Below are positions 624 through 26,870 of a stretch of DNA of 64,000 bases, one piece after another. The notes under the pieces are model-generated. The model saw only the letters and a program-made list of their open reading frames with translations, was not told the origin of the DNA and did no database searches. The DNA comes from Desulfobacteraceae bacterium (GTDB taxonomy: Bacteria > Desulfobacterota > Desulfobacteria > Desulfobacterales > UBA5852). Both the position numbers and the translations under genes were made by a program. The stretch's first letter is position 1, and each line of letters begins with the position of its first letter. The stretch spans positions 585 through 64,584 of the forward strand of contig JABZFP010000028.1 in NCBI GenBank assembly GCA_014237395.1. The letters run 5' to 3'.

Positions 624-1206
624 AGGACGGAAAACCTTTGAAAACAACTATCACCATGAAGGGCATGAAGAACATGAAGGAATCAATTTGTTTAAAACAA
701 ATTGATTCAATTCATCAACTATCGCGCTCTCTACGATCAGTCGTTGGCCATGTTTCAAATCTTGATGGACTCGTAAAAATTCCAAAAACAAGGTTGTGCG
801 TCATTCCTGCAGACGAGACTGTGTCGTAATTACAGAATGGACTCTTTTTCATTCTGTCATGCCGGACCCCGATCCGGCATCCAGTGTTGTAACACCAAAA
901 AAAACAACTGGATTCCGGGTCAAGCCCGGAATGACCTAAACCTGTAAAAGGCTGCTTTGAAATTGTGACACAGCCTCGGACGCCGGAATCCTATATTATC
1001 AAGTCGTTCTGGATGCCGAATCAAGTTTGGCATGACGGATAGAAGACTTACTACGAGTTCATCAATCTTTTCCTTGCACCCCAAAAGTTTTCGTCGCCAA
1101 ACTGGTTTTCTTCAAGATCTTCATGCTCTTCATGGTAGAAAATATGCCTTCTTTTTAGTATTCAGCTTTGATCTTGATGCTATTCGTTTATCTGCATCTG
1201 TGTTTA
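624..1206. repeat. composite repeat-filled intergenic region (HEG-box +, 29-bp palindrome, GTCAT-hairpin elements, HEG-box -, DTD-box -)
   Basis: HEG-box 652-680 caccatgaagggcatgaagaacatgaagg; palindrome 680-708; reverse HEG-box about 1108-1140; reverse DTD-box about 1168-1226. Confidence 0.85.
856..935. repeat. GTCAT...ATGAC double-hairpin element (copy 1)
   Basis: gtcatgccggaccccgatccggcatccag ... ctggattccgggtcaagcccggaatgac. Two hairpins (tgccgga/tccggca; attccggg/cccggaat) with inverted GTCAT/ATGAC ends. Confidence 0.7.
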
Positions 1207-2199
1207 TCAGCGTTCATCAGTGTCCAATCCATTTTTCTCAATCGCTTCGATCAGCAGCGGCAGAAAGGTATTCAAATCCTCCACCACGCCCACGTCAGCG
1301 GCATTGAAAATCGCGGCATGGGGGTCGATGTTGATCGCCACGACAAAGCGCGATCCGCTCATGCCGGCCAGGTGCTGAAATGCACCGGAGATGCCGCAGG
1401 CCAGATAGAGTTCGGGGGCGACCGTCGCACCGGTGACCCCCACCTGTCGATGGTATGGCAGCCAACCCGCATCACAGACGATACGGGATCCCGCCACGGC
1501 CGATTTGGGAAATAGAGCGGCCAGTCGGGAAAGGAGATCGAGATTATCTTCCGAGCCGATGCCGCGCCCTGCCGCGACGACGGTTGACGCCTGGGTCAAG
1601 GCCGCTTCGGTCGCCGATTCCTTGATCTCGATCAGACGGGTCCGGGTAACCGGCAGGGATGGTTGCTGGGTCTCCATCTCCGCAGAGTGACTGCCATTAC
1701 CCTCAAACTTGAAGTACCCCGGCAGCACCGTCAGGACGACAGGCCGATCATCCGCCTTTACGCCGGCCATATACTTGCCGCCCAATACGGCACGTTGGAA
1801 AATCGGTCCGCCGTCCTGTACCACCAGCCCTTGAACCCCGGAAACGTATGCAGCGTCGAACCTAACTGCCAAGGTCGCCGCATAGTCCTGTGAACGGGAT
1901 GTGTGGAGCAGCGCGATCACATCCGGTTGCATATCCCCTAAAAACGGTTGCAGGACCTCGGATAACAATTCTCCCGTGGGTGGCACCTCACATGGGATTT
2001 CCAGAGCGATTGCCGAATAACCCGTACTCCCCGACAACGCATCACCGGCATCGGCCGCATTGCTTCCTACCGCAAGCCAACAAACTTCGACGGATTCATT
2101 CTCTGCCAGCCTTGCCGCCAGGGCAGCCAGATCCACGATAGCCGGATGGGTTTTCCCCTGCTCAACTTCGGCAATGATGGCGACCTTGCGTGCTGACAT
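1207..2199 (-). CDS. etfA: electron transfer flavoprotein, alpha subunit
   Basis: ORF 1207..2310 trimmed to MSARKVAIIAEV (ATG 2199-2197, TGATG 1-nt overlap with the etfB stop). ETF-alpha FAD signature LYLACGISGAFQHLAGMSGSRFVVAIN. The last codons GLDTDER* are encoded by a repeat module. Confidence 0.9.
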   Translation of the reverse strand: MSARKVAIIAEVEQGKTHPAIVDLAALAARLAENESVEVCWLAVGSNAADAGDALSGSTGYSAIALEIPCEVPPTGELLSEVLQPFLGDMQPDVIALLHTSRSQDYAATLAVRFDAAYVSGVQGLVVQDGGPIFQRAVLGGKYMAGVKADDRPVVLTVLPGYFKFEGNGSHSAEMETQQPSLPVTRTRLIEIKESATEAALTQASTVVAAGRGIGSEDNLDLLSRLAALFPKSAVAGSRIVCDAGWLPYHRQVGVTGATVAPELYLACGISGAFQHLAGMSGSRFVVAINIDPHAAIFNAADVGVVEDLNTFLPLLIEAIEKNGLDTDER

Positions 2200-2981
2200 C
2201 AACACAGACCTTTCGCGTGAAACAGCTTGGATAGCTGGTGCGCCTTGCTCTCCGCGGTGCCTTCCATCATAACCCCGGCCCGCACCTTCTCCGGTGGCGT
2301 GATGGCGCATACCCGCTGTCTATCAGTCGGGGTCGACAGGGACGCCGACGGCAAAACCTCCAGCGGATATTGGTTGGCCCTCAGCAATTTTGAAAGCGCG
2401 GGATAGCGCGGCGTGTGGATTCCCGACTGGATGGTCAGCAGGGCCGGAAGCCGGACTTCCAGAACTTCTTGGCGTCCGCCCTCGACCTCTCTCTCACACC
2501 TCAGCACCCTCCCCTCCTCTTTATCGTTCATCGTATGGATCGCAGTCAGACAGGGCCATTTCAGCAGACCGGCGATGATCGGCCCCACTCCCCCTTGCAT
2601 CAGGTCTTCGGACATCACCCCGCAAAGAATCACGTCGTAAGCCTTTTCACGGGCATAAGCGGTAATCAATTCCCCAATCGTAAACGGACTCGGAAACATT
2701 TCGCGGGTCTTCTGGATATGCACGCCGTGATCGACGCCCATGCCGATAGCACGCCGGAGCACGTCGCCGGCATCTTGGTCACCCACGGTCAGCGCGTCGA
2801 TACGGGATGCACCGTGAGTTTCCCTCAGCCGAAGGGCTGCCTCGACCGCGTATTCATCGTAGCGGTTCATCCGCCAGGGGGTCCCTTCGCAGGTGAAATT
2901 CGCGGGAGATTTGGGCGGAATGTCCGGAAAGGTCATGGTTTCCAGATCCGGAATACGTTTTATGCAGACAAGAATTCGCAT
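2199..2981 (-). CDS. etfB: electron transfer flavoprotein, beta subunit
   Basis: 260 aa with an MRILVCIKRIPDLE N-terminus typical of ETF-beta. Translationally coupled to etfA. Confidence 0.9.
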   Translation of the reverse strand: MRILVCIKRIPDLETMTFPDIPPKSPANFTCEGTPWRMNRYDEYAVEAALRLRETHGASRIDALTVGDQDAGDVLRRAIGMGVDHGVHIQKTREMFPSPFTIGELITAYAREKAYDVILCGVMSEDLMQGGVGPIIAGLLKWPCLTAIHTMNDKEEGRVLRCEREVEGGRQEVLEVRLPALLTIQSGIHTPRYPALSKLLRANQYPLEVLPSASLSTPTDRQRVCAITPPEKVRAGVMMEGTAESKAHQLSKLFHAKGLC

Positions 2982-3420
2982 TTTAAAAACTCAAATAAAA
3001 AAATCATTTTTACCACGAAGGGCACGAAGAGCGGGAAGTTTTATATAAACAGAAAAACATTTTTTACCACGAAGCATATGAAGACCTTGAAGAAAACCAA
3101 AATCGTGGTTTGTTTTAATAGCTCTTTTTATTGATCTGTGGCTATCAGTGAAAATCTGTGGCTGAAAAAAAACATTTTTACCACGAAGGACACGAAGAAG
3201 GCGAAGTTTTAAAAGCACATAAACATTTTTTACCATGAAGCACATGAAGAATTTGAAGAAAACCCAATGGGACACAGATCAGCACAGATTCCCGCAGATT
3301 AAAGCAGTGATATAATTTCAGCAAAAACATTATCTGCGTGTATCTGTGCTAATCTGTGTCCTATTATCGTTCTGCACCGTATTCGTCTTTTATCCGTATT
3401 ATGTAAAATGTGTCCGTACC
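2982..3420. repeat. HEG-box/DTD-box mosaic
   Basis: Several taccacgaagg(g/a)cacgaaga..., taccatgaagcacatgaagaatttgaag and gggacacagatcagcacagattcccgcagat copies, followed by reversed atctgcgtgtatctgtgctaatctgtgtcc. Confidence 0.85.
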
Positions 3421-3437
3421 TGTGTCAACACAAATAG

Positions 3438-3485
3438 AACGAACGTTCGTTTTTTATTGACATCACCAATAGGCTCTGCCATATC
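3438..3485 (+). promoter_or_regulatory. 14-bp perfect palindrome abutting a sigma70-like promoter
   Basis: AACGAACGTTCGTT at 3438-3451; TTGACA 3457-3462; 17-nt spacer; weak -10 catatc 3480-3485; 100 nt upstream of the histidine phosphatase gene. Confidence 0.4.
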
Positions 3486-3585
3486 GCATTTAGGGCTTCA
3501 CTGACAAGGATACCCTGCAGAATATGAATTCCCCTCAATCGGGAATCGCATCGGTTCATAAACATTACCAACCAACGGTTTCGAG

Positions 3586-4296
3586 ATGAGCACAATCTAC
3601 ATGTTCCGCCACGGCCAGGCATCTTTCGGCCAGGACAACTACGATCAACTGTCGCCCACCGGCTACCGCCAGGCGCGGCTGGTGGCGGAACACCTGCGGG
3701 ATCTCGGAGTCGCCTTCGACGCGGTTTATACCGGCGCTTTGACCCGCCAGAAACAGACCTTTCAGTCGATGGCGGATGTTTTTGCCGAGAGCGAAGCCCC
3801 GTTGCCCACACCGGTCGAAACGGCCGATCTCAATGAGTATGATTCGACGGGTGTCTGGCAGCATTATTACCCCGCCACAATCAATGACCACCCGGAACTC
3901 GAACTGGATGAAACCAGCTTGGGGCAAAACCCGAAAAAGTTTCAACACGTCTTTGCCCGCATTGTCCAGCGGTGGATAAACGAACGGCACGACCCGCCTG
4001 GGATTGAATCATGGCGGGCCTTTCGCAGCCGCATCGGTGTCGGGTTGAATACCGTCATGCGGCAAGAGGGATCGGGGAAAAATGTGATGATCTTTACATC
4101 GGCCGGCCCTGTTGCCACGACCGTCCAGATGGCCACCGACATGCCCGACGACCGCTGCATCGGCATTTCCTGGCAGGTGTTGAATGCCTCCACGACGCGG
4201 TTCCGCTACAACGAAAAGGAAATAACGCTGGTGGGGTTCAATGACGTGTCCGCATTGGAACGCCAGGGCGACCCGGCTTTACTGACCTACCGATAA
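3586..4296 (+). CDS. histidine phosphatase family protein (phosphoglycerate-mutase-like)
   Basis: 236 aa with the catalytic RHG motif at the N-terminus (IYMFRHGQASFG). Confidence 0.75.
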   Translation: MSTIYMFRHGQASFGQDNYDQLSPTGYRQARLVAEHLRDLGVAFDAVYTGALTRQKQTFQSMADVFAESEAPLPTPVETADLNEYDSTGVWQHYYPATINDHPELELDETSLGQNPKKFQHVFARIVQRWINERHDPPGIESWRAFRSRIGVGLNTVMRQEGSGKNVMIFTSAGPVATTVQMATDMPDDRCIGISWQVLNASTTRFRYNEKEITLVGFNDVSALERQGDPALLTYR

Positions 4297-4524
4297 AGTC
4301 GGACTTCAGAAATTAGCCACAAATGGACACTGATGAACACAGATTAGGGGAGTAAACCTTTTTGCACCACGAAGAACACGAAGGGAAAGAAGTAAAAAAC
4401 CAATTCTCACTTTTTAGTTTGTTTTTACCTCTCAAAATAATTGGCCTTTCATCCGTGTGAATCTGTGCAAATCAGTGGCTGATTTTATTTCAAGACCTTC
4501 ATGGTAAATTGTTAGGAGCCAAAA
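4297..4524. repeat. HEG-box/DTD-box mosaic
   Basis: ggacactgatgaacacagatta, caccacgaagaacacgaaggg in + orientation; catccgtgtgaatctgtgcaaatcagtg and ccttcatggta in - orientation. Confidence 0.85.
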
Positions 4525-5715: not shown

Positions 5716-5900
5716 TGGGACACGGATAGACACAGATAAATCAAAACAAAAAATGCACCATGAAGCTCATGAAGGACTTGAAGGGAATCAATAGGAAATG
5801 GATGGACACCGATAGACACTGATCAATCAAGCAAAAAAGATGCACCACGAAGTGCACGAAGGACGCGAAGAAAAAAACAGAGCTTTGGTTTGTACCAACA
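5716..5900 (+). repeat. HEG-box/DTD-box mosaic (all + orientation)
   Basis: gggacacggatagacacagataaatc starts 2 nt after the ACAD stop. Then caccatgaagctcatgaaggacttgaaggg, ggacaccgatagacactgatcaatc, caccacgaagtgcacgaaggacgcgaag. Confidence 0.85.
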
Positions 5901-5984: not shown

Positions 5985-6108
5985 CAGGTTGTAGGTTTTG
6001 GTTCCGGGCAAGGCCGCAGCCCATTGGACACCGCAGGCGTAGCTGCGCTACGTCGAGGACGTGCGATGGGCGAGAACGCCGCCCGGGGGAAAAAGATGCT
6101 GCCTGGTG
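5985..6108 (-). repeat. TCCTCGACGTAGC-family repeat (copy in - orientation)
   Basis: The reverse complement reads ggcagcatctttttcccccgggcggcgttctcgcc...tcctcgacgtagcgcagctacgcctgcgg...ctgcggccttgcccggaaccaaaacc, which aligns by eye with 18481-18637 and 18672-18785. Confidence 0.7.
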
Positions 6109-6138: not shown

Positions 6139-7953
6139 ATGGCCCAACAAATTGCCGACCGTCGCGACATCGATTTTGTTCTGCACGAACTTCTTGAAAT
6201 CGAGAAGTTGACCGAAACGAAAAAATTCGGGGAATTCAACCGCAAGGCCTTCGACCTGATCCTCAATGAGGCCCGGCGCTTCGCCATCAAGGAACTGTTG
6301 CCCACCTATGAGGAAGGCGACCGTATCGGCGTCCGCTATGAGGGCAACGGCACGGTCAAGGTGCCGGACAGCTTTCACCGGGTGCATAAGCTCTACCTGG
6401 AAAGCGAATGGACGGCCCCGGCCATGAATCCGGAATACGGCGGGCAGGGCCTCCCCCACTCCCTGGCGGTTGCCGCGGACGAATACCTCATGGGTGCCAA
6501 CTGGGCCATCAGCGCCTATGGTTCGATGGGCGCCGGCACCGGCTACATGATCGAGAATTACGGTACCGACGAACAGAAAAAGACCTATCTGAAAAAACTA
6601 TACATCGGCGAGTGGGGCGGCACCATGCTGCTGACCGAATCGGAAGCCGGGTCCGACGTCGGCAACCTGTCCACCACGGCCGTGCGCAACCCCGACGGCA
6701 CCTTTTCGCTGACCGGCAACAAGATCTTCATCACCAACGGCGAGCACGACCTGGTGGACAACATCATTCACCCGGTGCTGGCGCGCATCGAAGACGACCC
6801 GGCCGGCACCAAGGGCATTTCCATCTTTATCGTGCCCAAATATTTCGTCAATGAAGACGGCAGCCTGGGAGACCGCAACGACATCGTCTGCACCGGCGTC
6901 GAAGAAAAGCACGGCATCCATGCCAGCGCCACCTGCAGCATGGCGTTGGGGACAAAAGGCCAGTGCATCGGCTACCTGCTGGGCGAAGAGAAAAAGGGCA
7001 TGCGGATCATGTTCCAGATGATGAACGGCGCCCGCCTGGGGACCGGCCTGCAGGCCCTGGCCCATGCCTCCACCGCCTACCTCTATGCCCTGGACTATGC
7101 CCGCAAACGCATCCAGGGCCGCGACCTCGAGGATTTCAAGAATCATGGAGCCCCCTCGGTCGCCATTATCCGCCACCCTGACATCCGCCGCACCCTGCTG
7201 TGGATGAAAGCCCACGTGGAAGGCCTGCGCGCCCTGATCTACTATTGCTGGAATCTGATCGACCAGGCGGTGGCCTCCGAATCGGAAGAAGAGCAGACCT
7301 ATCTGATGGACCTGGTGGGGCTCATCACGCCCATCATCAAGGGCTACGGCAGTGAGCGCGGCTACGATGTCTGCGTGCAGGCGATCCAGGTTTTCGGGGG
7401 GGCCGGCTACACCCGGGACTACCCGGTGGAAGCCATCGCCCGGGACTGTAAAATCACCACCATCTTCGAGGGCTGCACCGGCATCCAGGCCCTGGATCTC
7501 TTGGGCCGCAAGCTGGGCATGAAAAAAGGCGCCATCTATATGGACTTCATCGGAAAGATGAAGGCGGCGGCCGAAGCCGGTAAAAATCAAACGGCAACAA
7601 CCGATATGGCAGGGCGATTCGACGCCGTCGTGGACCGACTGGGGCAAGTGGCCTTCCATCTGGGCCAATCCGCCATGTCGCCCAAGTTCAAGGCCGCCTT
7701 TTCCCACTCGGTCCCTTTCCTGGACGTCATGGGGGATGTGATGATGGCCTGGATGCTCCTCTGGCGGGCCACCGTGGCCGCCGAAAAGCTTGAAGCGGCT
7801 AAAAAGAAGGACAAGCAGTTCTACCAGGGCCAGATCCAGACCGCAGAATTTTTCATCCGCACCATCCTTCCGGTCACGCTGGGCAGGATGGATGCCATTG
7901 AGGACTGCAACGATGCGGCGGTGGTGATGGAAGAAGCCGCCTTCGGCGGCTGA
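6139..7953 (+). CDS. acyl-CoA dehydrogenase, long form (~604 aa) with extra C-terminal helical domain
   Basis: ORF 6061..7953 trimmed to MAQQIADRRDIDF (RBS aaagga). Motifs LLTESEAGSDV, KIFITNGEHD, GGAGYTRDYPVEAIARDCKITTIFEGCTGIQ. Confidence 0.85.
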   Translation: MAQQIADRRDIDFVLHELLEIEKLTETKKFGEFNRKAFDLILNEARRFAIKELLPTYEEGDRIGVRYEGNGTVKVPDSFHRVHKLYLESEWTAPAMNPEYGGQGLPHSLAVAADEYLMGANWAISAYGSMGAGTGYMIENYGTDEQKKTYLKKLYIGEWGGTMLLTESEAGSDVGNLSTTAVRNPDGTFSLTGNKIFITNGEHDLVDNIIHPVLARIEDDPAGTKGISIFIVPKYFVNEDGSLGDRNDIVCTGVEEKHGIHASATCSMALGTKGQCIGYLLGEEKKGMRIMFQMMNGARLGTGLQALAHASTAYLYALDYARKRIQGRDLEDFKNHGAPSVAIIRHPDIRRTLLWMKAHVEGLRALIYYCWNLIDQAVASESEEEQTYLMDLVGLITPIIKGYGSERGYDVCVQAIQVFGGAGYTRDYPVEAIARDCKITTIFEGCTGIQALDLLGRKLGMKKGAIYMDFIGKMKAAAEAGKNQTATTDMAGRFDAVVDRLGQVAFHLGQSAMSPKFKAAFSHSVPFLDVMGDVMMAWMLLWRATVAAEKLEAAKKKDKQFYQGQIQTAEFFIRTILPVTLGRMDAIEDCNDAAVVMEEAAFGG

Positions 7954-8374
7954 TTTTTCACCACGAAATACATGAAGGACATAAAGAAAACCATATTAGG
8001 ACACGGATGAACACAGATAAACACGGATAAAAAATTAGAACATATTCTACCATGAAGAACATGAAGCACTTGAAGGGTAAAATCAAAAGCTAAAAGTTTA
8101 ACACCATGAAGGGAAACGAAGTGGGAAGACGACCAGCTATCGATCGTATATTTGGACCAATTTGTCGCCGACAAATTGATATCTTCATGCGCTTCATGTC
8201 CTTCATGGTGAAAACAGCTTTTTGCTGTTTTTTTACCCCTTCCACCCCTTCGTGTTCTTCGTGGTAAAAAAGTTTTTGGTGTTGCTTTTCCTATCAGTGT
8301 TGAGCTTGGTGCGTTTATCCCAATTTAATCAGTGTCTATCGGTGTCACTCTGTGGCTAAAAAAGGAATTTTATT
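7954..8374. repeat. HEG-box/DTD-box mosaic, symmetric around a 21-bp palindrome
   Basis: HEG+ 7959-7988, DTD+ 7999-8030 (three exact 10-bp units 8001/8011/8021), HEG+ 8048-8077, HEG+ 8102-8128, palindrome 8158-8178 caatttgtcgccgacaaattg, HEG- 8183-8210, HEG- 8238-8266, DTD- 8292-8346. Confidence 0.9.
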
Positions 8375-9244: not shown

Positions 9245-9566
9245 GAAACAGCCATTTACCACGAAGCGCACGAAGTGACATGAAGAAAGACATTCGGGAC
9301 ACGGATGAACACAAATAGACCCTGATATAAAATGAAAAACCAGATAATACCATGAAGGTCATGAAGAGCTTGAAGGGTAAAACAAAATATCACGACGCAT
9401 AAAATCATAGATCCATATTTACACCCTAATATTTATGCTTTTGTCTAATTGAATTTGTCGCCGACAAATTCAATTCTTCATGATCTTCATGCCCTTCATG
9501 GTAAATTTCTTTTCAGTGTTTTATCCGTGTTCACCTGTGTTGATCAGTGTCCAATTAAGGTTATCA
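9245..9566. repeat. HEG-box/DTD-box mosaic, symmetric around a 25-bp palindrome
   Basis: HEG+, DTD+ (gggacacggatgaacacaaataga), HEG+, palindrome 9449-9473 ttgaatttgtcgccgacaaattcaa, HEG- (cttcatgatcttcatgcccttcatggta), DTD- (atccgtgttcacctgtgttgatcagtgtcc). Confidence 0.9.
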
Positions 9567-10256
9567 ATGAATTACCAGGATTTTCAGCAAACCATCGATA
9601 TCTCCAAAGATCATCTTTACCGGGAGATCTACCTGGCCAACCGCGACCAGATTCAGGTCAAAAAGGAAAAAACCGTTATCCGCAATCTGTCCCGCATCTT
9701 CAATGCCGCCCTTAAAATCAGTAATGAAAAGGGCTTTCAGGCCATGAGCATGCGGGACTTCAGCAAGGAAACCGGGCTCAGTATGGGCGCCCTGTACTCG
9801 TATTTCGCCAGCAAGGACGAGCTGCTGGACATGCTGCTGCGCCAGGGACGCCAACTGGTCATGCGTATCCTGCGCCAACACATCCAGCCCATCGGAGACC
9901 CGGTCGTCAAACTGGAAACTGCCATCCGGATCCATATTTATCTCAGCGAAGCGCTTCAGCCCTGGTTCTATTTTTCTTTTATGGAAGCCAAGAACATGAG
10001 CCCCAGCGAGAAGGAAAAAACGGTTGCCAGCGAGCTCTATACCGACCAAATCTTTGCCGACATTCTCCTTGAGGGCCAGGCCGCCGGCCAGTTTACGCCA
10101 CGCGACCCCCAACAGAGCGCCGGCGGTATCAAAGCCCTGCTGCAGGACTGGTATGTCAAACGCTGGAAATACGCCAAGCGTAAGACCGGCGTCGATCAGT
10201 ATGCGGACTTTATTGTTGAATTCGTGATGGCCTATCATCGCACACCATCAACCTGA
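9567..10256 (+). CDS. TetR/AcrR family transcriptional regulator
   Basis: ORF 9480..10256 trimmed to MNYQDFQQ; the upstream part of the ORF is repeat sequence. HTH region FQAMSMRDFSKETGLSMGALYSYFASKDELL. Confidence 0.85.
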   Translation: MNYQDFQQTIDISKDHLYREIYLANRDQIQVKKEKTVIRNLSRIFNAALKISNEKGFQAMSMRDFSKETGLSMGALYSYFASKDELLDMLLRQGRQLVMRILRQHIQPIGDPVVKLETAIRIHIYLSEALQPWFYFSFMEAKNMSPSEKEKTVASELYTDQIFADILLEGQAAGQFTPRDPQQSAGGIKALLQDWYVKRWKYAKRKTGVDQYADFIVEFVMAYHRTPST

Positions 10257-11360: not shown

Positions 11361-11687
11361 AACCGTTATTAGACACTGATGCACACGGATAAACACGGGT
11401 AAAGCTATTAGAAACAGCAAAAGAATTTTTCACCATGAAGGGCATGAAGAGCCTGAAGGGGTTAGGTCAAAACCGAAAAGACATTCACCACGAAGGACAC
11501 GAAGAGCGCGAAGGGATAAAAAAACAGCTAAAGCCTTTTTAATCATGAAGGGCATGAAGCGCCTGAAGAAAACAATTTTTTAATCTGTGTTCATCTGCGT
11601 TAATCTGTGTCCCCATTCTTTTCTTCGTGATCTTCGTGTGCTTCGTGGTGATCGCTTTGGATATTCGCTTCTTATAAGGGGGTCAAT
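11361..11687. repeat. HEG-box/DTD-box mosaic
   Basis: DTD+ (agacactgatgcacacggataaacacgg), three HEG+ copies, then DTD- (taatctgtgttcatctgcgttaatctgtgtcccc) and HEG- (cttcgtgatcttcgtgtgcttcgtggtg). Confidence 0.9.
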
Positions 11688-12749: not shown

Positions 12750-13088
12750 TGGGACACTGATGGACACGGATGAACACAGATCAAGAAAATAATTACTACC
12801 ACGAAGGACATGAAGATCACGAAGTGGAAATCCTGTAGAAACGCTTTTTTACGATGAAACGCATTGAGATGATGTCGATTTATAAAAAATCTCTTTATGT
12901 GATGTGCTCGAATCCGTTTTGATCTGCGTTCCATTAGTTTTTCTTCGCAGTCTTCGTGTCCTTCGTGGTGAAGATAAACAGCTTTTGCCGTGGCATTCTC
13001 TGTTACAACTTTTTGGGTGATGTTTTAATCTGCGCGTATCTGCGTTCATCTGTGTTCCCATGAATTTTATATAACAAAAGGATAATAA
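12750..13088. repeat. HEG-box/DTD-box mosaic
   Basis: DTD+ directly after the stop (gggacactgatggacacggatgaacacagatc), HEG+, then DTD-, HEG- (cttcgcagtcttcgtgtccttcgtggtg), DTD- (atctgcgcgtatctgcgttcatctgtgttccc). Confidence 0.9.
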
Positions 13089-15221
13089 ATGTCTGACAAT
13101 CCCCTCCGGACCATCATGGCCCCACGCTCCATCGCCATCGTGGGGGCCAGCAACAACCCCACCAAGATGGGCACCATCCAGTACCTGAACCTTCGGCATA
13201 GCGGATTCCCCGGGCCGGTCTACCCCATCCATCCCAAAGAAAACCAGATTTTTGGGGTCGAAGCCTATCCGCAGATCGAGGATCTGCCGGAAGTCCCCGA
13301 TCTGGCCATGCTGGTGGTGCCCGGCCACCTGGTGGTGGATATGATCGAACGCTTCGGCGCGCTTGGCACCCGCCATGCCGTTATCATCACGGCCGGGTTC
13401 AAGGAGACCGGCCAGGATGGCGTGGCCCGCGAGGCGGCTCTCATGCAGGCCGCCCGGGCACATGGGTTGCACTTTCTTGGGCCCAACTGCATGGGTCTGG
13501 TCAATACCCACCTGCCCCTCAATGTAACGGCGGCCCCCCTGATTTCCCCGCCCGGCCACCTCAGCATCGTCTCTCAGAGCGGCACCTACATCACCCAGAC
13601 GCTCCAATACCTGCACGATCGTGGGGTGCGCCTGAACAAAGCGGTCAGTGTCGGCAACGAAGCCAGTATCGATGTGGTGGACGTTCTGGAATTCCTGGCG
13701 GAGGACCCCGAAACCAAGGCCATCGGCATGTACATCGAGTGCATTCGCCGTCCCGGTGATTTCCTTGCGGCGGCCCGGCGCATAACCCGACGCATTCCGA
13801 TTATCGCACAATATGTGGGTGGGACAGCCGCCGGCGCCCGTTCGGGATCCAGCCACACGGGCGCCCTGGCCGGTCCGGATGACATCTACGACGGCCTCTT
13901 CAAACAGGCCGGCATCATACGGGCCCAATCCATCGAAGACGTCTACCGGATCGGGCAAGCGCTGTCCAGCCAACCCCTGCCGGCCGGCAAGCGAGTGGCC
14001 ATCCTGACCAACTCCGGCGGCCCGGGCACGGCCATGGCCGACACCCTGGACCGCATGGGCATGGAAGTGCCGGCCTTCAGTGCCGCCCTGCAGGAAAAAC
14101 TGCAGGCCCTCCTGCCGGGCCACGCCAGCACGGCCAATCCGGTCGACCTGACCTTCCATGTCGACATGACCCTGATGGCCGAGACCCTACCGGAAGCGCT
14201 CCTGTCGTCAAAAGAGGTCGATGCCCTGCTGATTCACGGCATCATGGACACAGGCTGGGCCGATCTGGCCTATCCGGTCTTCAAGGATATCTTCAAAATG
14301 AGCCGGGAAGACTTTCGCAATAGCCTGAACGCCAATATCGAGGATCTTCTCGACATGCCGTCGCGCTTTCAGAAACCGGTGATCATCTCATCTTTTTTCG
14401 GACGCCAAGATCGAGCGGCTCGTCGTCTCCAGGACGGCGGCATCCCGGTTTTCGACAGCCCCGAAAAGGCCGCCGCCGCCATGGCAACCCTCCATACCTA
14501 TCGCACTATCCGATCCAAAGCAGTAACATCCACGGTGGTGCATCGCCCTGCGCCGAAAACAGCCCAAACAATTATAGATCGCGCCCGGATCGACGGCTGG
14601 AATGAATACGATGCCAAGGAAATGCTGCGGACCTATGGCGTGCCCACCTGCCATGAAATCCTGGCCGAATCGATCGAGGCCGCACGGCAAGCCGCCCACA
14701 CCATCGGGTTTCCCGTTGCGGTCAAAGGCTGCCATGCGACCCTGGCCCATAAGACCGAGCGGGGTCTCGTCCATCTGGACCTGGCCTCCGAAGCCGCGGT
14801 CACGGCGGCCTGTGAATCCATCCAAAATGAAGCCGGAGAAGCGGCCTTCCTTGTGTGCGAAATGGTTCGCGGCAAACGGGAATTCATTGCCGGCGTCCAT
14901 CGCCACCCCGGGTTCCCGCCATCGGTGCTATTCGGTTTAGGCGGTATCTTTGCCGAAGCGCTCCAGGATACGGCCATCCGACTGGCGCCCTTGACCCCAT
15001 CGGAAGCCCTGGAGCAGATCGCCGCTATCCGCTCGCAGGCGCTGCTTGACGCACACCGTGGCCTGCCGACCGTGGACCGCAAGGCCCTTGCGGATATCCT
15101 GGTCAACATCGGTCAACTGGCGTTGGATTTCCCGCAAATCGAATCGATCGACCTGAATCCCATTCTCATCCGGGATGATCAGCCGCTGGTGGTCGATGCG
15201 CTGTTTGAACAAAAGAAATAG
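13089..15221 (+). CDS. ADP(NDP)-forming acyl-/acetyl-CoA synthetase, fused alpha-beta
   Basis: 710 aa. N-terminal CoA-binding domain (SIAIVGASNNPTKMG), succinyl-CoA-synthetase-like ligase domain (SQSGTY, SGSSHTGALAG) and C-terminal ATP-grasp. Confidence 0.85.
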   Translation: MSDNPLRTIMAPRSIAIVGASNNPTKMGTIQYLNLRHSGFPGPVYPIHPKENQIFGVEAYPQIEDLPEVPDLAMLVVPGHLVVDMIERFGALGTRHAVIITAGFKETGQDGVAREAALMQAARAHGLHFLGPNCMGLVNTHLPLNVTAAPLISPPGHLSIVSQSGTYITQTLQYLHDRGVRLNKAVSVGNEASIDVVDVLEFLAEDPETKAIGMYIECIRRPGDFLAAARRITRRIPIIAQYVGGTAAGARSGSSHTGALAGPDDIYDGLFKQAGIIRAQSIEDVYRIGQALSSQPLPAGKRVAILTNSGGPGTAMADTLDRMGMEVPAFSAALQEKLQALLPGHASTANPVDLTFHVDMTLMAETLPEALLSSKEVDALLIHGIMDTGWADLAYPVFKDIFKMSREDFRNSLNANIEDLLDMPSRFQKPVIISSFFGRQDRAARRLQDGGIPVFDSPEKAAAAMATLHTYRTIRSKAVTSTVVHRPAPKTAQTIIDRARIDGWNEYDAKEMLRTYGVPTCHEILAESIEAARQAAHTIGFPVAVKGCHATLAHKTERGLVHLDLASEAAVTAACESIQNEAGEAAFLVCEMVRGKREFIAGVHRHPGFPPSVLFGLGGIFAEALQDTAIRLAPLTPSEALEQIAAIRSQALLDAHRGLPTVDRKALADILVNIGQLALDFPQIESIDLNPILIRDDQPLVVDALFEQKK

Positions 15222-15250
15222 GACACAGATGAACACTGATGACACAGATC
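15221..15250 (+). repeat. DTD-box (+)
   Basis: ggacacagatgaacactgatgacacagatc; the first G is the last base of the acyl-CoA synthetase TAG stop. Confidence 0.9.
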
Positions 15251-15288
15251 GAAGGGGTCAGTAAAAACCCACATCAGGAGATCACAGC

Positions 15289-15669
15289 GTGGCATATAAG
15301 CATGAAGAATTGACGCGCCATATTATTGAACTCTTCTATAAAGTCTATAACTCGCTGGGCTATGGCTTTTTAGAGAAAGTATACGAAAATGCGCTCGCGA
15401 TAGAATTCAAAAATTCAGGCTTGGATGCCAAACCGCAAGCACCTATTAAAGTCGTATACAACCGGCAAATCGTTGGTGAATATTATATCGATCTTCTGGT
15501 CGAAGATTGCGTCATCGTCGAAATCAAGGCCGTTAAATCCCTGTTGAAAGAGCATGAAGCACAGTTGCTCAACTATTTGAAAGCATCAAGAATGGAAGTG
15601 GGGCTCCTATTAAATTTTGGACCAAAACCCCAAATTTCCCGAAAAATATTCGATAACCATAGAAAGTAA
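15289..15669 (+). CDS. GxxExxY family protein (PD-(D/E)XK nuclease-like)
   Basis: 126 aa with a GTG start. Motifs GYGFLEKVYENAL (GxxExxY) and DLLVEDCVIVEIKAV. Bracketed by inverted DTD-box repeats. Confidence 0.8.
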   Translation: MAYKHEELTRHIIELFYKVYNSLGYGFLEKVYENALAIEFKNSGLDAKPQAPIKVVYNRQIVGEYYIDLLVEDCVIVEIKAVKSLLKEHEAQLLNYLKASRMEVGLLLNFGPKPQISRKIFDNHRK

Positions 15670-15688
15670 ATACTGTCGACGGCTCATA

Positions 15689-15722
15689 CTTATCTGTGTT
15701 TATCTGTGTTCATCTGTGTCCC
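15689..15722 (-). repeat. DTD-box (-)
   Basis: cttatctgtgtttatctgtgttcatctgtgtccc; the reverse complement gggacacagatgaacacagataaacacagataag encodes the rarD C-terminus and stop. Confidence 0.9.
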
Positions 15723-16640
15723 ATATCTCGATTTCAAAACGCGGCGATGGGAAATGACGGAATCGTAGGAATAAATCGCGAGTGCCGTCCAGATCAGGCC
15801 GAAGGTCAGCAGCTGGGTCGGCAGGAGCGGTTCGTGGTAAACGAAGACCGCCAGAAGGAAAGTGCAACTGGGGGCGGTGTACTGCAGGAATCCGACCGTG
15901 GCCAGTCGCAGCAATTTGGCCCCCATGGTGAAGAGAAGCAGGGGCAGGCCGGTCACCAGAGCGGCCCCCATCAGCATGAGGGAAATTGTTGTTCCGTCAT
16001 GCAAGAATGCGCCGCGGCCGGCGTGATCAAGATAGAGCAAGTAGGCCGTGGCCGGGATTGAAAGCAGGAGCGTTTCCACGGTCAGCCCCACCAGCGGGCC
16101 AACCGAGGCAACCTTCCGGATCAGGCCGTAGAAGCCGAAACTGAACGCCAATGCCAACGCGACCCAGGGGAACTGGCCATAGCTCAGCGTCAGATAGGTG
16201 ACGCCCGCCGCCGCCAGACCGACGGCCACAAGCTGGAGTCTGCGGAGACGCTCCTTGAGAAAAACAAACCCCAACAGCACGTTGACAAGGGGGGCAATAT
16301 AATACCCCAGACTGGCCTGCAGAATATGATCGCTGTTGATGGCCCAAATATATAGAAACCAGTTGATGCTCACGATCAGCGTGGTGAGGAGTAGAATCAA
16401 CAGCGTACGGCCGGATGTCAGTGCGCCGATCAGGTCCTTCAGATGGCCCTGAAGCAGAACGATAGGGGCCAGAAAAACAAAAGACCAGATCATGCGGTGC
16501 ATCAGGACTTCAAAGGCCGGTACGCTGGCCAGGGCTTTCCAGTAAACCGGGCTCAGCCCCCAGATGAGAAACGCGGATGCCGCCAATGCGATCCCCTGGG
16601 GAGAATCGGATGCATCGGTTGCCTGTGTTTGCCTGGGCAT
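15690..16640 (-). CDS. rarD: EamA/RarD family permease
   Basis: 316 aa, about 10 TM helices, with a GIALAASAFLIWGLSPVYWK N-terminal region typical of RarD. The last 10 codons GTQMNTDKHR and the stop lie in a DTD-box repeat. Confidence 0.75.
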   Translation of the reverse strand: MPRQTQATDASDSPQGIALAASAFLIWGLSPVYWKALASVPAFEVLMHRMIWSFVFLAPIVLLQGHLKDLIGALTSGRTLLILLLTTLIVSINWFLYIWAINSDHILQASLGYYIAPLVNVLLGFVFLKERLRRLQLVAVGLAAAGVTYLTLSYGQFPWVALALAFSFGFYGLIRKVASVGPLVGLTVETLLLSIPATAYLLYLDHAGRGAFLHDGTTISLMLMGAALVTGLPLLLFTMGAKLLRLATVGFLQYTAPSCTFLLAVFVYHEPLLPTQLLTFGLIWTALAIYSYDSVISHRRVLKSRYGTQMNTDKHR

Positions 16641-18468: not shown

Positions 18469-18480
18469 TGCCCACCCAGA

Positions 18481-18637
18481 AATGGCATCTTTCGGCCCAA
18501 GCCTGCGTTCTCGCTCTTTTGAAATCCTCGACGTAGCAAACCAACGCCTGCGGTTTCCACCCACGGGGTGAATTGGATCAGGTGGGAAGTCCCGCAAAGC
18601 GGGAAAAATCGCTGCGGCCTTGGCCTGAACCAAAACT
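18481..18637 (+). repeat. TCCTCGACGTAGC-family repeat (copy with internal insertion)
   Basis: aatggcatctttcggcccaagcctgcgttctcgc...tcctcgacgtagcaaaccaacgcctgcgg...ctgcggccttggcctgaaccaaaac. Confidence 0.7.
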
Positions 18638-18671
18638 TACCATTTCTGGATAGACATGTAGTCGTGTCCAA

Positions 18672-18785
18672 AAAGGCATCTTTGGCCCTTGGACGGCGTT
18701 CTCAGTGTTTGGCGGTCCTCGACGTAGCCAATGCTACGCCTCCGGGCGCCAAAGCACCTGCGGCCTTGTCCAAAAACCAAATCTA
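18672..18785 (+). repeat. TCCTCGACGTAGC-family repeat
   Basis: aaaggcatctttggcccttggacggcgttctcag...tcctcgacgtagccaatgctacgcctccggg...ctgcggccttgtccaaaaaccaaatc. A further 5' fragment atggcatctttcggcccaaac lies at 18841-18865. Confidence 0.7.
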
Positions 18786-18933
18786 CCCCATGGAATACCG
18801 ACACGCTTTTTTTGGAACCCCAAAGAAATACTTGTGACAGATGGCATCTTTCGGCCCAAACATGGCCCCGGTAAGCTGAAACAGGGAGCTTCTCCTGAAT
18901 CTTTAATTTTGAGGTCACAAGCGGCATCCTTCT

Positions 18934-18967
18934 TTGATCTGTGGAAATCTGTGTTAATCTGTGTCCC
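18934..18967 (-). repeat. DTD-box (-)
   Basis: ttgatctgtggaaatctgtgttaatctgtgtccc, 55 nt upstream of the Gfo/Idh/MocA gene. Confidence 0.85.
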
Positions 18968-22411: not shown

Positions 22412-22801
22412 CCCGAACATTTCATGAAATTTTTTCTACACCATAAATTTTATTTAAATATTCAGTGGTATAGATACCCCCGGGTAAACCCGGGGTACTA
22501 AAGGTCTACGGCTCCTGCGGAGCCACCTCACCTCTGCTGACGCAGAGACGAGGTAAAGCTCATTCATCCACGGGTAAACCCGTGGTGTTCTGTCTTCGAC
22601 CGCATAAAAGCTATTCGGGGTATAATTTTCAGGTGACACTTTGTACCCATGGCCGATTTCCAAAATCATAGAAAATATTTCACCCTGCGGGCGCGACCGA
22701 GATGCCCATTGGCCGAGTTATCAGAGGCTTGCGGTAGCATTCCTACAGCGGCGCCCCTGATGCCTTGCCAATGAACATCTCAAACGCGTGAAATATTCGG
22801 G
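22412..22801. mobile_element. MITE copy 1 (interrupted by a nested 134-bp element)
   Basis: Starts cccgaacatttcatgaaa and ends cgtgaaatattcggg (about 15-bp imperfect terminal inverted repeats). Collinear by eye with 37892-38148 except for the insertion at 22473-22606. Confidence 0.8.
22473..22606. mobile_element. nested hairpin-rich miniature element (PATE-like?)
   Basis: Present in MITE copy 1 and absent from copy 2 (copy 2 reads cagtggtataaaagctattc uninterrupted). Subterminal hairpins ccccgggtaaacccgggg and ccacgggtaaacccgtgg, central hairpins ggctcctgcggagcc and ctctgctgacgcagag. No terminal inverted repeats; ATA at both junctions. Confidence 0.65.
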
Positions 22802-24058: not shown

Positions 24059-24191
24059 AATGAGGACTGACGCCTTTACAGACAGGCCGCAAAACAGTAC
24101 CATGGCTGCCGAACGTCAAACAGTTCACGCCATCCGAGAATGACAACTTGCCGCATAACCGGCATCGATAACGCCGAAGAAAGTTTAATTC

Positions 24192-24605: not shown

Positions 24606-24694
24606 ATCCATTGTCTACCACCCCATCCATCACGGCAGCCTTCTTGATTCGGAAGGGGTTGTGCCACCACACGCATAAAGGAAGTCCTCGGCTA

Positions 24695-25156: not shown

Positions 25157-25280
25157 ACCCATAGGATGAATCGAAGATCCGCCGCCGTCTTGATCCGGTA
25201 TCGATAAAGCCGTATAACGCCTTCCAGATCGACAAGCAGGTAGTCTCCCTATCAACACGCGTTTATGATGGAGATCGAAG

Positions 25281-25709
25281 ATGGCGCTCGTGATACGCCC
25301 AATGACCATTACCGACTTTGACGCCGTGCGCGCCCTGTGGGCATCCTGTGAAGGTGTCGGCCTGAACGATGCCGACCGGCCGGAGGTCCTTCGTTCCTAT
25401 TTGGACCGCAACCCCGGTATGAGCTTCGTGGTCCAGGCGGACAATGCGATCGTCGGGGCCGTCCTTTGCGGCCATGACGGCCGGCGGGGCTACCTGAATC
25501 ATCTGGCCGTCAGCCCGGCGTATCGCCATCGAGGTCTTGCCCGAGATCTGGTCGATAATTGCCTCACGGCCCTGCAAAAAGCCGGCATCGGAAAATGCCA
25601 CCTTTTTATTTTCAGTTCCAATCAAGATGGCCGAAACTTCTGGCGCAAAATCGGTTGGGAGCTGCGAGAAGACCTGGCTGTGGCTTCACGAATCTTGGCA
25701 CCAGAGTGA
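25281..25709 (+). CDS. GNAT family N-acetyltransferase
   Basis: 142 aa. Acetyl-CoA motif HLAVSPAYRHRGLARDLV. Confidence 0.85.
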   Translation: MALVIRPMTITDFDAVRALWASCEGVGLNDADRPEVLRSYLDRNPGMSFVVQADNAIVGAVLCGHDGRRGYLNHLAVSPAYRHRGLARDLVDNCLTALQKAGIGKCHLFIFSSNQDGRNFWRKIGWELREDLAVASRILAPE

Positions 25710-25739
25710 AGGACTTATAGGAAACGAGGAGGCCACGCC

Positions 25740-26525
25740 ATGAACGAAATCCTTATCCAGAGTTGGAATGAGCTCCAGGAGGCGCTTTTCGAAGACGCCT
25801 GGAACCCCGATATCGAACGGTACCGTTCCCGCAATGCCTTCCGGGGGCTGTCCGATGCAAGCTATCCCCTGGAAACCACCTTGATGCGCCTGGGTGGTCG
25901 CTATGTCGAACTCGAACGCCATCTGCTGCGCAACTTCCGCAAATACGCCCACCGGGATGTGGTCGAACGGGATTCCCTCTGGCACTGGATGACCGTGGCG
26001 CAGCACCACGGATTGCCTACCCGTCTCATGGACTGGACCTATTCGCCTTTCGTTGCCATGCATTTCGCCCTGACCAACCTCGAAAAATATCACACCGACG
26101 GCGTCATCTGGGCGGTGAATTACGCCAAGGCCCACGAACTCTTGCCGGACAAGCTCAAACATGCCCTCGAACAGGAAGGGGCCAATGTATTCACCGTGCG
26201 CATGCTTTCCGAACAAGTCACGTCGCTAAACGAATTAATGGAGATGGCCGCCGCCCCCTTTACGATCTTCTTTGAGCCGCCCTCCATCGACGACCGCATC
26301 GTCAACCAGTTCGCTTTTTTCTCCATCATGTCGGACCCCACCGCCTGCCTTGACCAGTGGTTCACCCACCACCCCGACATCTGGCGCAAAATCATCATTC
26401 CGGCGGATTTGAAATGGGAATTACGCGACAAGTTGGATCAGGCCAACATCAGTGAACGGGTGCTCTTCCCGGGACTCGACGGCCTGAGCTCATGGCTCAA
26501 ACGGCAGTACAGCCCGAAGGTATAA
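25740..26525 (+). CDS. FRG domain protein
   Basis: 261 aa. FRGLSDASYPL and VAQHHGLPTRLMDWTYSPFVAMHFA are the FRG-domain core. Confidence 0.75.
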   Translation: MNEILIQSWNELQEALFEDAWNPDIERYRSRNAFRGLSDASYPLETTLMRLGGRYVELERHLLRNFRKYAHRDVVERDSLWHWMTVAQHHGLPTRLMDWTYSPFVAMHFALTNLEKYHTDGVIWAVNYAKAHELLPDKLKHALEQEGANVFTVRMLSEQVTSLNELMEMAAAPFTIFFEPPSIDDRIVNQFAFFSIMSDPTACLDQWFTHHPDIWRKIIIPADLKWELRDKLDQANISERVLFPGLDGLSSWLKRQYSPKV

Positions 26526-26870
26526 AACGATTGGGACACGGATGAACGCAGATAAACGCGGATCAACATCAATGATAACGATCAACCTTGAAGATCATAG
26601 ATCCGATCGAAACGGGAACCCCTTTATTTACCATGAAGAACATGAAGGGAATGAAGAAAAAATAAAAAATGACCCCATACTGAAAAACTTTTTTCTCCAC
26701 GAAGGACGCGAAGGAACACGAAGAAATCAATTGCCTCTGAAAAATTGTTTTTTGGATCTAACGTAAACATAAAGCTTTGTGCGCCATTCTGTCCTTCGTG
26801 GTCAACATCCCTTAGCGCTGGTTTTAAACCTTCATGATCTTCATGCCCTTCATGGTGATTGCTTTTCATT
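26526..26870. repeat. HEG-box/DTD-box mosaic
   Basis: DTD+ (gggacacggatgaacgcagataaacgcggatc), HEG+ x2 (taccatgaagaacatgaagggaatgaagaa; ctccacgaaggacgcgaaggaacacgaag), HEG- (ccttcatgatcttcatgcccttcatggtg). Confidence 0.9.

Follow-up and report, generated by a model that had tools for sequence, protein, structure and literature searches.

Probable nuclease-associated palindromic elements in the intergenic gaps of a Desulfobacteraceae bacterium

Background

Among the described repeats of bacterial intergenic DNA, those closest to the ones treated here are the repetitive extragenic palindromic (REP) sequences. In brief, these are imperfect palindromes of ~20-40 nt with a GTAG-like head, which occur as inverted pairs (REP doublets forming hairpins, REPINs) and in bacterial interspersed mosaic elements (BIMEs), and whose enzyme is a REP-associated tyrosine transposase (RAYT) of the Y1 HUH type. 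REP/RAYT pairs are lineage-specific. Here we describe two repeat modules, HEG, defined as (CAYGAAGNN)x3, and DTD, defined as (ACACNGATNA)x3, in a 64,000 nt stretch of DNA from Desulfobacteraceae bacterium (assembly GCA_014237395.1, contig JABZFP010000028.1, positions 585-64,584), in the following called the window. In our view the two boxes probably form the inverted terminal arms of a family of small palindromic, apparently selfish elements, of which HEG and DTD stand for two lineages and which is associated with a nuclease, the GxxExxY protein.

In brief, a full-length element would consist of an arm, a GxxExxY gene of the PD-(D/E)XK type (~125 amino acids) and an inverted arm, together ~0.45-0.5 kb, with each arm built from three, sometimes four, tandem 9-10-nt units. 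The window would hold one full element, of the DTD type (15222-15725). The other ~40 modules would be gene-less derivatives, similar to REPINs or to miniature inverted-repeat transposable elements (MITEs), that have piled up, nested in one another and been tandemly amplified in the gaps of a beta-oxidation gene cluster.

The system resembles REP/BIME-REPIN and RAYT in its short extragenic inverted pairs, its hairpins and intergenic mosaics, in an enzyme gene that is itself flanked by the repeats, and in repeats that far outnumber the genes. It differs in that the enzyme is a PD-(D/E)XK nuclease and not a Y1 HUH transposase, in that the arms are three direct 9-10-nt repeats and a hairpin needs two inverted arms, and in that different phyla share the same arms and near-identical proteins. 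MITEs, e.g. the Correia elements of Neisseria (CREE/NEMIS), are likewise small, non-coding, intergenic, co-transcribed and bounded by terminal inverted repeats, and they share with the present elements an origin by internal deletion (loci L332 and L334, see below). We know of no autonomous partner of the Correia elements. Unlike in MITEs, the partner open reading frame (ORF) here matches only PF13366 / TIGR04256 and encodes no recognisable transposase, and tandem sub-repeats make up the arms. A target-site duplication was not found in the orthologous gaps compared.

Three further systems can be compared. The BOX elements of Streptococcus pneumoniae (boxA-boxB(n)-boxC) also form intergenic modular mosaics with variable tandem copy number and predicted folding, but their sequences are unrelated to those of the present modules. 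BOX is restricted to one lineage, and we know of no gene associated with it. Homing endonuclease genes, some of which encode PD-(D/E)XK enzymes such as I-Ssp6803I, are small nuclease genes that behave as selfish cassettes. The present elements are similar in this respect, with an allele that is 94.5% identical at the nucleotide level between flanks of 83-85%, but they lack an intron or intein context and a defined cleavage site, and they have many derivatives without a gene, of a kind that homing endonuclease genes do not give rise to. The intervening sequence (IVS) in the 23S rRNA of Coxiella burnetii carries an S23p ORF and has a stem that is cut by RNase III (PMC4990558). Like this IVS, the present elements are apparently selfish inserts of ~0.4-0.5 kb with a small ORF, complementary stem-forming ends and horizontal acquisition; unlike it, they are located between protein-coding genes, and their ORF encodes a PD-(D/E)XK nuclease and not the four-helix-bundle S23p. 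An IVS in rRNA was rejected as an identity of the elements, since neither the window nor 40 GxxExxY loci matched rRNA at the gathering thresholds of Rfam.

A full-length element around a GxxExxY gene

The gap 15222-15689 lies between the genes for an ADP-forming acyl-CoA synthetase (ACS) and an EamA protein, and it harbors a gene for a GxxExxY / PDDEXK_3 nuclease at 15289-15669 on the plus strand. The gene encodes 126 amino acids and has a GTG start codon with a Shine-Dalgarno sequence (aggaga) 8 nt 5' of it. Its product matches PF13366 with E=8.9e-42 (142.6 bits against a cut-off of 22) and TIGR04256 with E=4.1e-41 (140 bits against a cut-off of 35). Two inverted DTD modules bracket the gene. 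The left arm (GACACAGATGAACACTGATGACACAGAT; 15222-15250, plus strand) has the TAG stop codon of ACS (15219-15221) in its prefix, and the right arm (15684-15725, minus strand) supplies the final codons of EamA (15690-16640, minus strand), its stop included. Folding as a single strand is predicted to pair the two DTD arms with each other, with the ORF between them (z = -5.1). A first-pass annotation of this DNA, made from the sequence alone, knew of no described function for the module family and missed this gene. The modules are not orphans: DTD arms flank the GxxExxY gene within the very interval that it described, and HEG arms flank a second clade of the protein in other genomes. The window gave no further PDDEXK_3 gene, whole or as a remnant.

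The catalytic residues of the PD-(D/E)XK fold, E29 (of GxxExxY), D68 and E78-x-K80, are invariant among 24 and 62 sequences. The AlphaFold model of the window protein (pLDDT 94.7) has a minimal PD-(D/E)XK fold with the order alpha-alpha-beta-beta-beta-alpha-beta-beta. No relative was found in the PDB by sequence; the nearest PDB structures to the model are Cas4 SSO0001, the lambda and alkaline exonucleases and the Holliday-junction resolvase Hjc, all distant (TM 0.4-0.6). The GxxExxY family has 16,171 representatives (clusters at 50% identity) at E <= 1e-3. A survey from 2012 enters PDDEXK_3 under 'function unknown' and notes multiple transfers (PMC3424549). The literature that we found on GxxExxY, PDDEXK_3, PF13366 or TIGR04256 does not treat repeats, that on IVS proteins offered nothing pertinent, and we found none on the arms or on a link between arms and GxxExxY genes; family-database notes or closed literature may hold one.

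The arms account for spurious ORFs, over-extended N-termini of GxxExxY proteins and changed C-termini of neighboring proteins. EamA is an example of the latter, with 316 amino acids in the window and in the relative L324 versus 303 in the relative L323, which has another allele of the element. The view of the first-pass annotation that the ORFs encoded by the modules are artefacts holds. Some database proteins of 250-270 amino acids (P0361-P0365 and others) have two PDDEXK_3 domains and may be either tandem elements read through or true fusions.

Arms around GxxExxY genes chosen without regard to repeats

We picked 80 loci on metagenome contigs by protein pattern only. The encoded relatives are 47-95% identical, and 73 loci have both flanks. 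For every locus, 20 mononucleotide shuffles were made, and a locus was counted as positive when its score exceeded that of each shuffle by more than 6. By this measure, 53 of the 73 have an inverted repeat shared by their two flanks, upstream and downstream. Direct similarity of the flanks was seen as well in 24 loci, usually because each flank contains a whole hairpin.

The arms around these genes consist of 3-4 tandem units, mostly of the CNCNGAT type, for example GGACACAGATGAACACAGAT, GAACGCGGATGACGCGGATT, GGACAGGATTAACAGGAT, GCCGCAGACATACGCAGAC and AGCCACAGAAACACACAGAA. Among 40 arms the best period was 9 nt in 14, 10 nt in 17 and 11 nt in three; an exact 6-mer census of the arms was too strict for classing unit types. 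Database proteins of the DTD clade often begin with 'MNTD.KD.KHKE', which is a translated DTD unit (GATGAACACNGAT). Many of the GxxExxY contigs are shorter than 2 kb, and two independent metagenome contigs (L001 and L002), which have the same sequence as the window from ~8185, both end 190 nt 5' of the gene for 3-hydroxyacyl-CoA dehydrogenase (3HCDH), inside the mosaic. It appears that assemblies break at these repeats.

HEG arms and a second clade of GxxExxY proteins

A scan with the HEG pattern ACCAYGAAGNNCAYGAAGNNNNNGAAG, using one genome per species, gave at least 120 loci with 248 modules. Among the matches listed are Methylococcaceae (with a complete Methylotuvimicrobium genome), Syntrophobacteraceae, Desulfobacter, Acidobacteriota, Verrucomicrobiota, Planctomycetota, Chloroflexota, Binatia, Nitrospirota, Methylomirabilota, Thioalkalivibrio and others, where taxon names are those of the records of the metagenome-assembled genomes. 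The taxonomic breadth of the repeats is a lower bound because the matches listed are incomplete. The family is not a local one, with the identical HEG sequence in many phyla. T-runs or TAA/TGA frequently precede the HEG arms of other phyla.

Close pairs of HEG modules in these loci are strongly oriented, with 84 adjacent +/- pairs (5-400 nt apart) versus six close -/+ pairs. The unit is therefore a hairpin of the form TTCACC(ACGAAGNN)3 - loop - inverse. Most of these hairpins, across phyla, are without a gene. As in MITEs, they are small, spanning 45-230 nt with arms of 27 nt; the DTD+...DTD- units of 145 nt in relatives of the window are similar; and the ends are shared with a coding element, since identical arms flank genes in loci L039, L122, L327 and L328. 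Contigs classed as viral in IMG/VR (L123-L242) hold 322 HEG modules with 58 close +/- pairs and no close -/+ pair, and no PDDEXK_3 gene is present in those with HEG hairpins.

When all ORFs within 600 nt of the 248 HEG modules were clustered, the sole recurrent neighbor that always adjoined a module was PDDEXK_3, found in four loci at a distance of at most 76 nt. The clustering gave no transposase, and a tblastn search over the whole HEG loci gave no further PDDEXK_3 copies. In L039 and L122 the third HEG unit adjoins the start codon (CACGAAGG-ATGGAATT), and the inverted arm follows 3-10 nt behind the stop codon. With the L039 protein as query, 8000 relatives were obtained, and identity is 80-95% for the best 120. 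Named members of this clade come from Lacimicrobium (Gammaproteobacteria), Desantisbacteria, Bipolaricaulota and Desulfobacteraceae. Proteins that are 80-95% identical between phyla point to horizontal spread.

We refer to this clade as 'MEFDELSN'. HEG arms are present on both sides of the gene in all four of its loci (L039, L122, L327 from Lacimicrobium, which is a complete genome, and L328, which is Desantisbacteria-like). All six over-called N-termini in the clade read HEG units, in differing frames (TTKGTKQHEG, HHEEHEGTRR, PRRARRTRR), right before MEFDELS. None of the 71 DTD-clade loci has a HEG arm. Arm type thus tracks protein clade. A third unit type, CACAGAG, is found on the Bacteroides finegoldii plasmid NZ_OY725952.1 (L338, 535-1014), where a GxxExxY gene is located between TTCACC(ACAGAGGAC)x3 and inverse arms. 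The termini of this element, TTCACC...GGTGAA, are those of HEG; it fills the gap between radA and the next gene, and RefSeq annotates no repeat there. Of the 248 HEG modules, only three are located within 120 nt of a DTD module. HEG and DTD represent separate lineages of elements, co-resident in the window and rarely found together elsewhere.

In L332 and L334 a full HEG-type element is preceded by an internally deleted copy, which retains the HEG+ arm, the ORF's first 36 nt and final ~47 nt, and one HEG- unit. Locus L328 is otherwise identical to these two and lacks the deleted copy. The tandem of deleted and full copy lies between the dCTP-deaminase and YfhO genes (~1290-1460 in L332, L334 and L337) and is a strain-level polymorphism relative to L328.

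Turnover in close relatives

Four relatives of the window (L323-L326) were found via the ACS protein. Shared genes are 88-95% identical to the window at the nucleotide level in L323, 82-92% in L324 and 75-89% in L325. At the ACS|EamA site, the GxxExxY allele of the window is 94.5% identical to that of L324 at the nucleotide level and 94% at the amino acid level, whereas the flanking genes are 85% and 83% identical. The allele of L323 and L325 is only 62% identical to that of the window at the amino acid level.

The HEG/DTD mosaic occupies the gap between the second acyl-CoA dehydrogenase (ACAD2) and 3HCDH in both the window and L324; in L323 and L325 an unrelated palindrome takes its place. 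This palindrome is ~140 nt long (TTTCCATTTCAAG…CTTGAAATGGAAA) and is located at 5000-5140 in L323 and 5392-5530 in L325. The Fer4|ACS gap is 339 nt (D+ H+ ... D- H- D-) in the window versus 145 nt (D+ ... D-) in L323, L324 and L325. The APH|Fer4 gap contains an array of alternating CAT-type and CAC-type HEG+ modules, with three copies in the window, seven in L323 and one each in L324 and L325. Module number and the content of whole gaps vary among the window and its close relatives.

Constraint on the repeat units and folding

Whole gaps are predicted to fold far better than shuffled sequence, as had been proposed for a long composite hairpin, with z-scores from -5.1 to -6.95. The gap 7954-8374 folds at -126 kcal/mol (z = -6.95), and the gap 12750-13088 has z = -5.4. 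The 7-mers hardly vary among 92 distinct HEG hairpins, and the C/T subtype is common to both arms in 96% of cases. The 2-nt spacers between units form Watson-Crick pairs in 47% and 38% of cases, versus 36% and 35% with shuffled partners. A structured RNA with covariation was rejected, as spacer complementarity in these hairpins is barely above that of shuffled partners. It is the repeated word and not the pairing that is conserved, which agrees better with a protein that recognises every unit than with selection for an RNA fold. From the pattern of conservation, a protein that reads each unit would be the best explanation for invariant 7-mers with free spacers.

Other identities were tried for the modules. 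No Rfam family was found in the window at gathering thresholds, and a search of 1-27.6 kb at E <= 1 gave only an unrelated sub-threshold match at 27218. Consensus scans gave no excess of terminator-like sites (31 against 24.6 +/- 6 expected) or promoter-like sites (10 against 12.8 expected), and the modules do not themselves score as either. A clustered regularly interspaced short palindromic repeat (CRISPR) array was rejected, in agreement with the first-pass annotation, as the units are contiguous with 2-3-nt spacers, the orientation of the arms is inverted, and cas domains were not detected in the window. The statement that the modules are not an insertion sequence (IS) is correct in so far as no IS or prophage is annotated; the modules would nonetheless be the ends of an apparent mobile element, which comes near to the annotation's refuting case of motifs that are the ends of an annotated IS or prophage.

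Inventory of modules in the window

Both motifs are found where the first-pass annotation had placed them, and far above expectation from dinucleotide-preserving shuffles. The two-unit HEG pattern CAYGAAGNNCAYGAAG with at most one mismatch has 41 matches versus 0.04 expected, and the two-unit DTD pattern ACACNGATNNACACNGAT with at most two mismatches has 37 versus 0.19. All matches lie within 655-26854. When merged, they give 25 HEG modules (18 plus, 7 minus) and 20 DTD modules (10 plus, 10 minus), and all 45 are intergenic or at gene ends. We drew the gaps from a Pfam-based gene map; of those of at least 100 nt, 11 of 16 in 0-27 kb bear modules versus none of 17 in 27-64 kb (Fisher p = 2e-5). 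The modules do fill intergenic gaps as described, in 11 gaps by this map and not in 12, and nothing but the degenerate copy at 59665 (TCATGAAGAACATGACA) occurs in 27-64 kb. Module-bearing gaps have a G+C content of 37-49% versus 56% for the whole window. The description as a REP/BIME-like mosaic of dispersed inverted modules is supported. Plus copies on the left and minus copies on the right is a rule that applies within each palindromic set and not to whole gaps, as seen from two of the gaps below.

With its conserved outer prefix, the HEG consensus is ttTTCACC-AYGAAGNN-CAYGAAGNN-CAYGAAG, and that of DTD is T(G/A)GGAC-ACNGATNA-ACACNGATNA-ACACNGAT, or TAGCCAC.... DTD+ arms start 0-19 nt 3' of stop codons, and three stop codons lie inside arms, those of the electron transfer flavoprotein (ETF) alpha subunit (1207), ACS (TAG, 15219-15221) and EamA. 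A third small module is the palindrome CAATTTGT-N4/5-ACAAATTG, which is found three times (684-704, 8156-8178 and 9450-9472), always on the inner (GAAG) side of HEG arms. A similar sequence, AAGCAATTTGCTT, is also seen 3' of a HEG arm in locus L094.

The first 15 kb of the window encode a beta-oxidation cluster with ETF alpha and beta, two acyl-CoA dehydrogenases (ACAD1 and ACAD2), 3HCDH, a TetR regulator, an APH-like kinase, an Fe-S protein and ACS. In the gap 624-1206, a three-unit HEG module (655-680, plus) is followed by the small palindrome CAATTTGT-N5-ACAAATTG (684-704), which adjoins the GAAG side of the arm, by HEG at 1109-1134 (minus) and by DTD at 1196-1223 (minus), which overlaps the stop codon of ETF-alpha (1207-1209). 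Three REP-like hairpins of the form GTCAT(G/T)CCGG-N7-CCGG(C/A)ATCCAG (856-884, 908-935 and 1009-1036), one inverted relative to the other two, are located between the HEG+ and HEG- arms of this gap; they are a separate dispersed repeat family.

The gap 2982-3585 contains two palindromic sets, with HEG at 3014-3030 and 3068-3084 (plus), a degenerate DTD-like module at 3126-3167 (minus), HEG at 3182-3198 and 3234-3250 (plus), and DTD at 3272-3289 (plus) and 3332-3359 (minus). Further on are DTD at 4327-4344 (plus, with the prefix TAGCCACAAATGG from ~4315), HEG at 4368-4384 (plus) and DTD at 4451-4468 (minus). Right behind the ACAD1 stop codon, the TGGGAC prefix from 5716 leads into DTD at 5720-5737, followed by HEG at 5759-5784, DTD at 5806-5823 and HEG at 5846-5871, all on the plus strand. 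A sequence 5' of ACAD2 (6025-6099) is 75% complementary to 18485-18559 and belongs to another repeat family (…CCTCGACGTAGC…).

A strong terminator-like hairpin (AGCCGCCTTCGGCGGCT followed by TTTTT) lies over the end of ACAD2 at 7935-7951, and its T-tract enters the TTTTTCACC prefix of the first HEG arm in the gap 7954-8374. The order given for this gap by the first-pass annotation is correct. It reads H+ D+ H+ H+, palindrome, H- H- D-, with a degenerate HEG (7962-7987) 3' of the hairpin, a three-unit DTD (8001-8028), HEG (8051-8076) and a second degenerate HEG (8105-8130; CATGAAGGGAAACGAAGTGGGAAG) on the plus strand. The palindrome CAATTTGTCGCCGACAAATTG (8156-8178) is at the center of the gap, and HEG (8182-8207 and 8247-8263) and DTD (8328-8345) follow on the minus strand, the outer end of the latter (...CTGTGGCTA) being ~20 nt 5' of the 3HCDH start codon. 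Behind 3HCDH there are HEG at 9260-9276, DTD at 9299-9326 and HEG at 9351-9376 (all plus), the palindrome AATTTGTCGCCGACAAATT (9450-9472), HEG at 9475-9500 and DTD at 9523-9550 (both minus). The HEG module at 9475-9500 is within a mechanical ORF (9480-10256), of which the real TetR start is near 9567.

The gap 11361-11687 holds interleaved sets (D+ H+ H+ H+ D- H-) without nesting. In brief, DTD at 11373-11400 (plus) is followed by a tandem array of HEG modules with 55-nt spacing (11434-11459, CAT type; 11489-11514, CAC type; 11544-11569, CAT type; all plus), then by DTD at 11583-11610 (minus) and HEG at 11622-11647 (minus). Right behind the TGA stop codon of Fer4, a TGGGAC prefix from 12750 opens DTD at 12754-12781 (plus). 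HEG at 12800-12825 (plus) comes next, then a degenerate DTD (12912-12929), HEG (12951-12967) and DTD (13028-13055), these three on the minus strand. The HEG pair of this gap is missing in all three relatives, L323-L325.

Beyond the full-length element, a solitary DTD module (18937-18964, minus) lies ~60 nt 5' of a GFO/IDH/MocA gene. The last set consists of DTD at 26536-26563 (plus), 6 nt 3' of the stop codon of an FRG-domain gene, HEG at 26632-26657 and 26698-26714 (both plus), and HEG at 26829-26854 (minus) over the end of a minus-strand ORF (26850-27272). Two other repeat structures were seen. The region 18469-18900, of the repeat family that also occurs at 6025-6099, contains two direct copies ~190 nt apart (18480-18540 / 18671-18731; 18612-18641 / 18758-18787). 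A 515-nt gap 3' of the TerC gene has twin hairpins at ~22477-22498 and ~22560-22577 (CCCCCGGGTAAACCCGGGG, CCACGGGTAAACCCGTGG) with a common GTAAAC loop, and Rfam gave no match for these.

Alternative explanations

Four other explanations were weighed against a nuclease-associated element family, and every one of them is contradicted by at least one test. A classical REP/BIME (REPIN) system that is moved in trans by a RAYT encoded elsewhere, with an incidental link to GxxExxY genes, would also give extragenic, high-copy, hairpin-forming inverted pairs in a BIME-like mosaic, and the relative L326 has a Y1_Tnp-like gene. This gene (2926-3810; 294 amino acids, a weak match) has, however, no HEG or DTD module within 2.7 kb, and no Y1_Tnp domain is present among the window proteins scanned. 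A co-occurring RAYT-like or other protein had been envisaged by the first-pass annotation, and the partner beside the 248 HEG modules turned out to be PDDEXK_3. As single arms are direct triplet repeats and not self-complementary REP palindromes, and arm type co-varies with GxxExxY clade, we find this explanation very unlikely. The modules could alternatively be RNA elements selected by the host, with paired modules serving as hairpins for processing, stability or insulation in polycistronic mRNAs, here of the beta-oxidation operon, and not be mobile DNA. REPs and Correia elements have known RNA-level effects of this kind, the gaps between co-oriented genes do fold far better than shuffles, and the arms adjoin stop codons and ribosome-binding sites while leaving genes intact. 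Against this stand the small or absent compensatory change in the spacers of the 92 hairpins, the invariance of the 7-mers across phyla and the absence of an Rfam match. Orthologous gaps of close relatives, moreover, are without modules, have replaced modules or differ in copy number, and the elements occur beside unrelated genes in unrelated phyla. RNA selection cannot account for the origin of the modules and is unlikely as a full explanation, but an RNA side effect is compatible with a mobile element.

Invariant short units with fixed 9-10-bp spacing and free spacers are typical of protein recognition, and the cluster has a TetR gene at ~9567-10256, so that iteron-like operator arrays for a host DNA-binding protein (this TetR or a nucleoid protein), phased on one helix face, come to mind. 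We consider such arrays extremely improbable, as one and the same HEG sequence adjoins unrelated genes in many phyla, relatives keep the same TetR gene without modules in orthologous gaps, and the gene that is consistently flanked by arms encodes a nuclease and not a regulator. The presence of periods of 9, 10 and 11 nt in the family also weakens the idea of 10-bp phasing. The modules may, lastly, be passive repeat DNA shaped by slippage, unequal crossing-over and gene conversion without a dedicated enzyme, with GxxExxY genes merely tolerated in hairpins. The copy number of the 55/110-nt tandem array (3, 7, 1 and 1 among relatives) and gap differences that resemble replacement rather than clean insertion speak for this. 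It leaves unexplained how arms can be near-identical, and proteins 80-95% identical, between phyla, why arm type and protein clade are strictly paired, and why inverted arms bracket 53 of the 73 genes, and we likewise regard it as improbable.

A nuclease-associated element family builds on what the loci themselves display: the architecture of the elements, its generality, the match between arm and clade, a single derivative with an internal deletion, and a fast turnover between close relatives in which alleles are replaced. Several points nevertheless weigh against it. No significant inverted flank was detected in 20 of the 73 GxxExxY loci. The gap differences between relatives look like replacement and unequal recombination, and no clean insertion junction, filled/empty pair or target-site duplication was found among the compared orthologous gaps. 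The GxxExxY gene was found in none of 50,697 GenBank phage records and on only eight of 72,556 plasmids, and phages and plasmids were rejected as vectors for spread across phyla. Since the window holds no HEG-type gene, the HEG link comes from other genomes. The structures nearest to the nuclease are as distant as given above, and its action on the arms is inferred. GxxExxY genes might also have been captured by, or have inserted into, pre-existing hairpins instead of mobilising them. It should also be noted that the modules are clustered in 0-27 kb only, for which preferential insertion into or beside existing copies is our guess.

Proposed activity and significance

Within a nuclease-associated element family, the nuclease may possibly recognise the arm 7-mers and drive spread and replacement, either by cutting at the arms followed by recombinational repair, i.e. 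a homing-like cassette exchange, or by a transposition-like step; we put this forward tentatively. The homing-like exchange would fit best because of the allele discordance at the ACS|EamA site. By analogy with the 23S rRNA IVS and with REPs, there is in our estimation an even chance that paired arms, when co-transcribed with adjacent genes, form stems of ~27-32 bp that act as RNase III substrates or 3' stabilisers. Any effect of the elements on the host is probably a side effect. The intergenic mosaic of the window would mostly be a pile-up of gene-less copies and not a regulatory array.

The turnover of modules between strains at 82-95% nucleotide identity makes them usable as strain markers. 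We further speculate, with some reservation, that GxxExxY proteins could be the enzymes of an unrecognised class of bacterial mobile or homing elements, in which a minimal nuclease reads three 9-10-bp iterons per inverted arm and drives both cassette exchange and the spread of gene-less hairpins. If so, these elements would be moving between phyla at present, and they would be the source of a large part of the 'HEGHEG', 'TKDTK', 'MNTD' and 'LRVLRG' pseudo-ORFs and of the assembly breaks in environmental genomes. A nuclease with tandem 7-mers as its recognition sequence would also make an interesting reagent. The partnership of repeat and enzyme would run parallel to that of REPIN and RAYT, with another catalytic fold and across phyla, and it would give a biological role to a very large family of proteins of unknown function.

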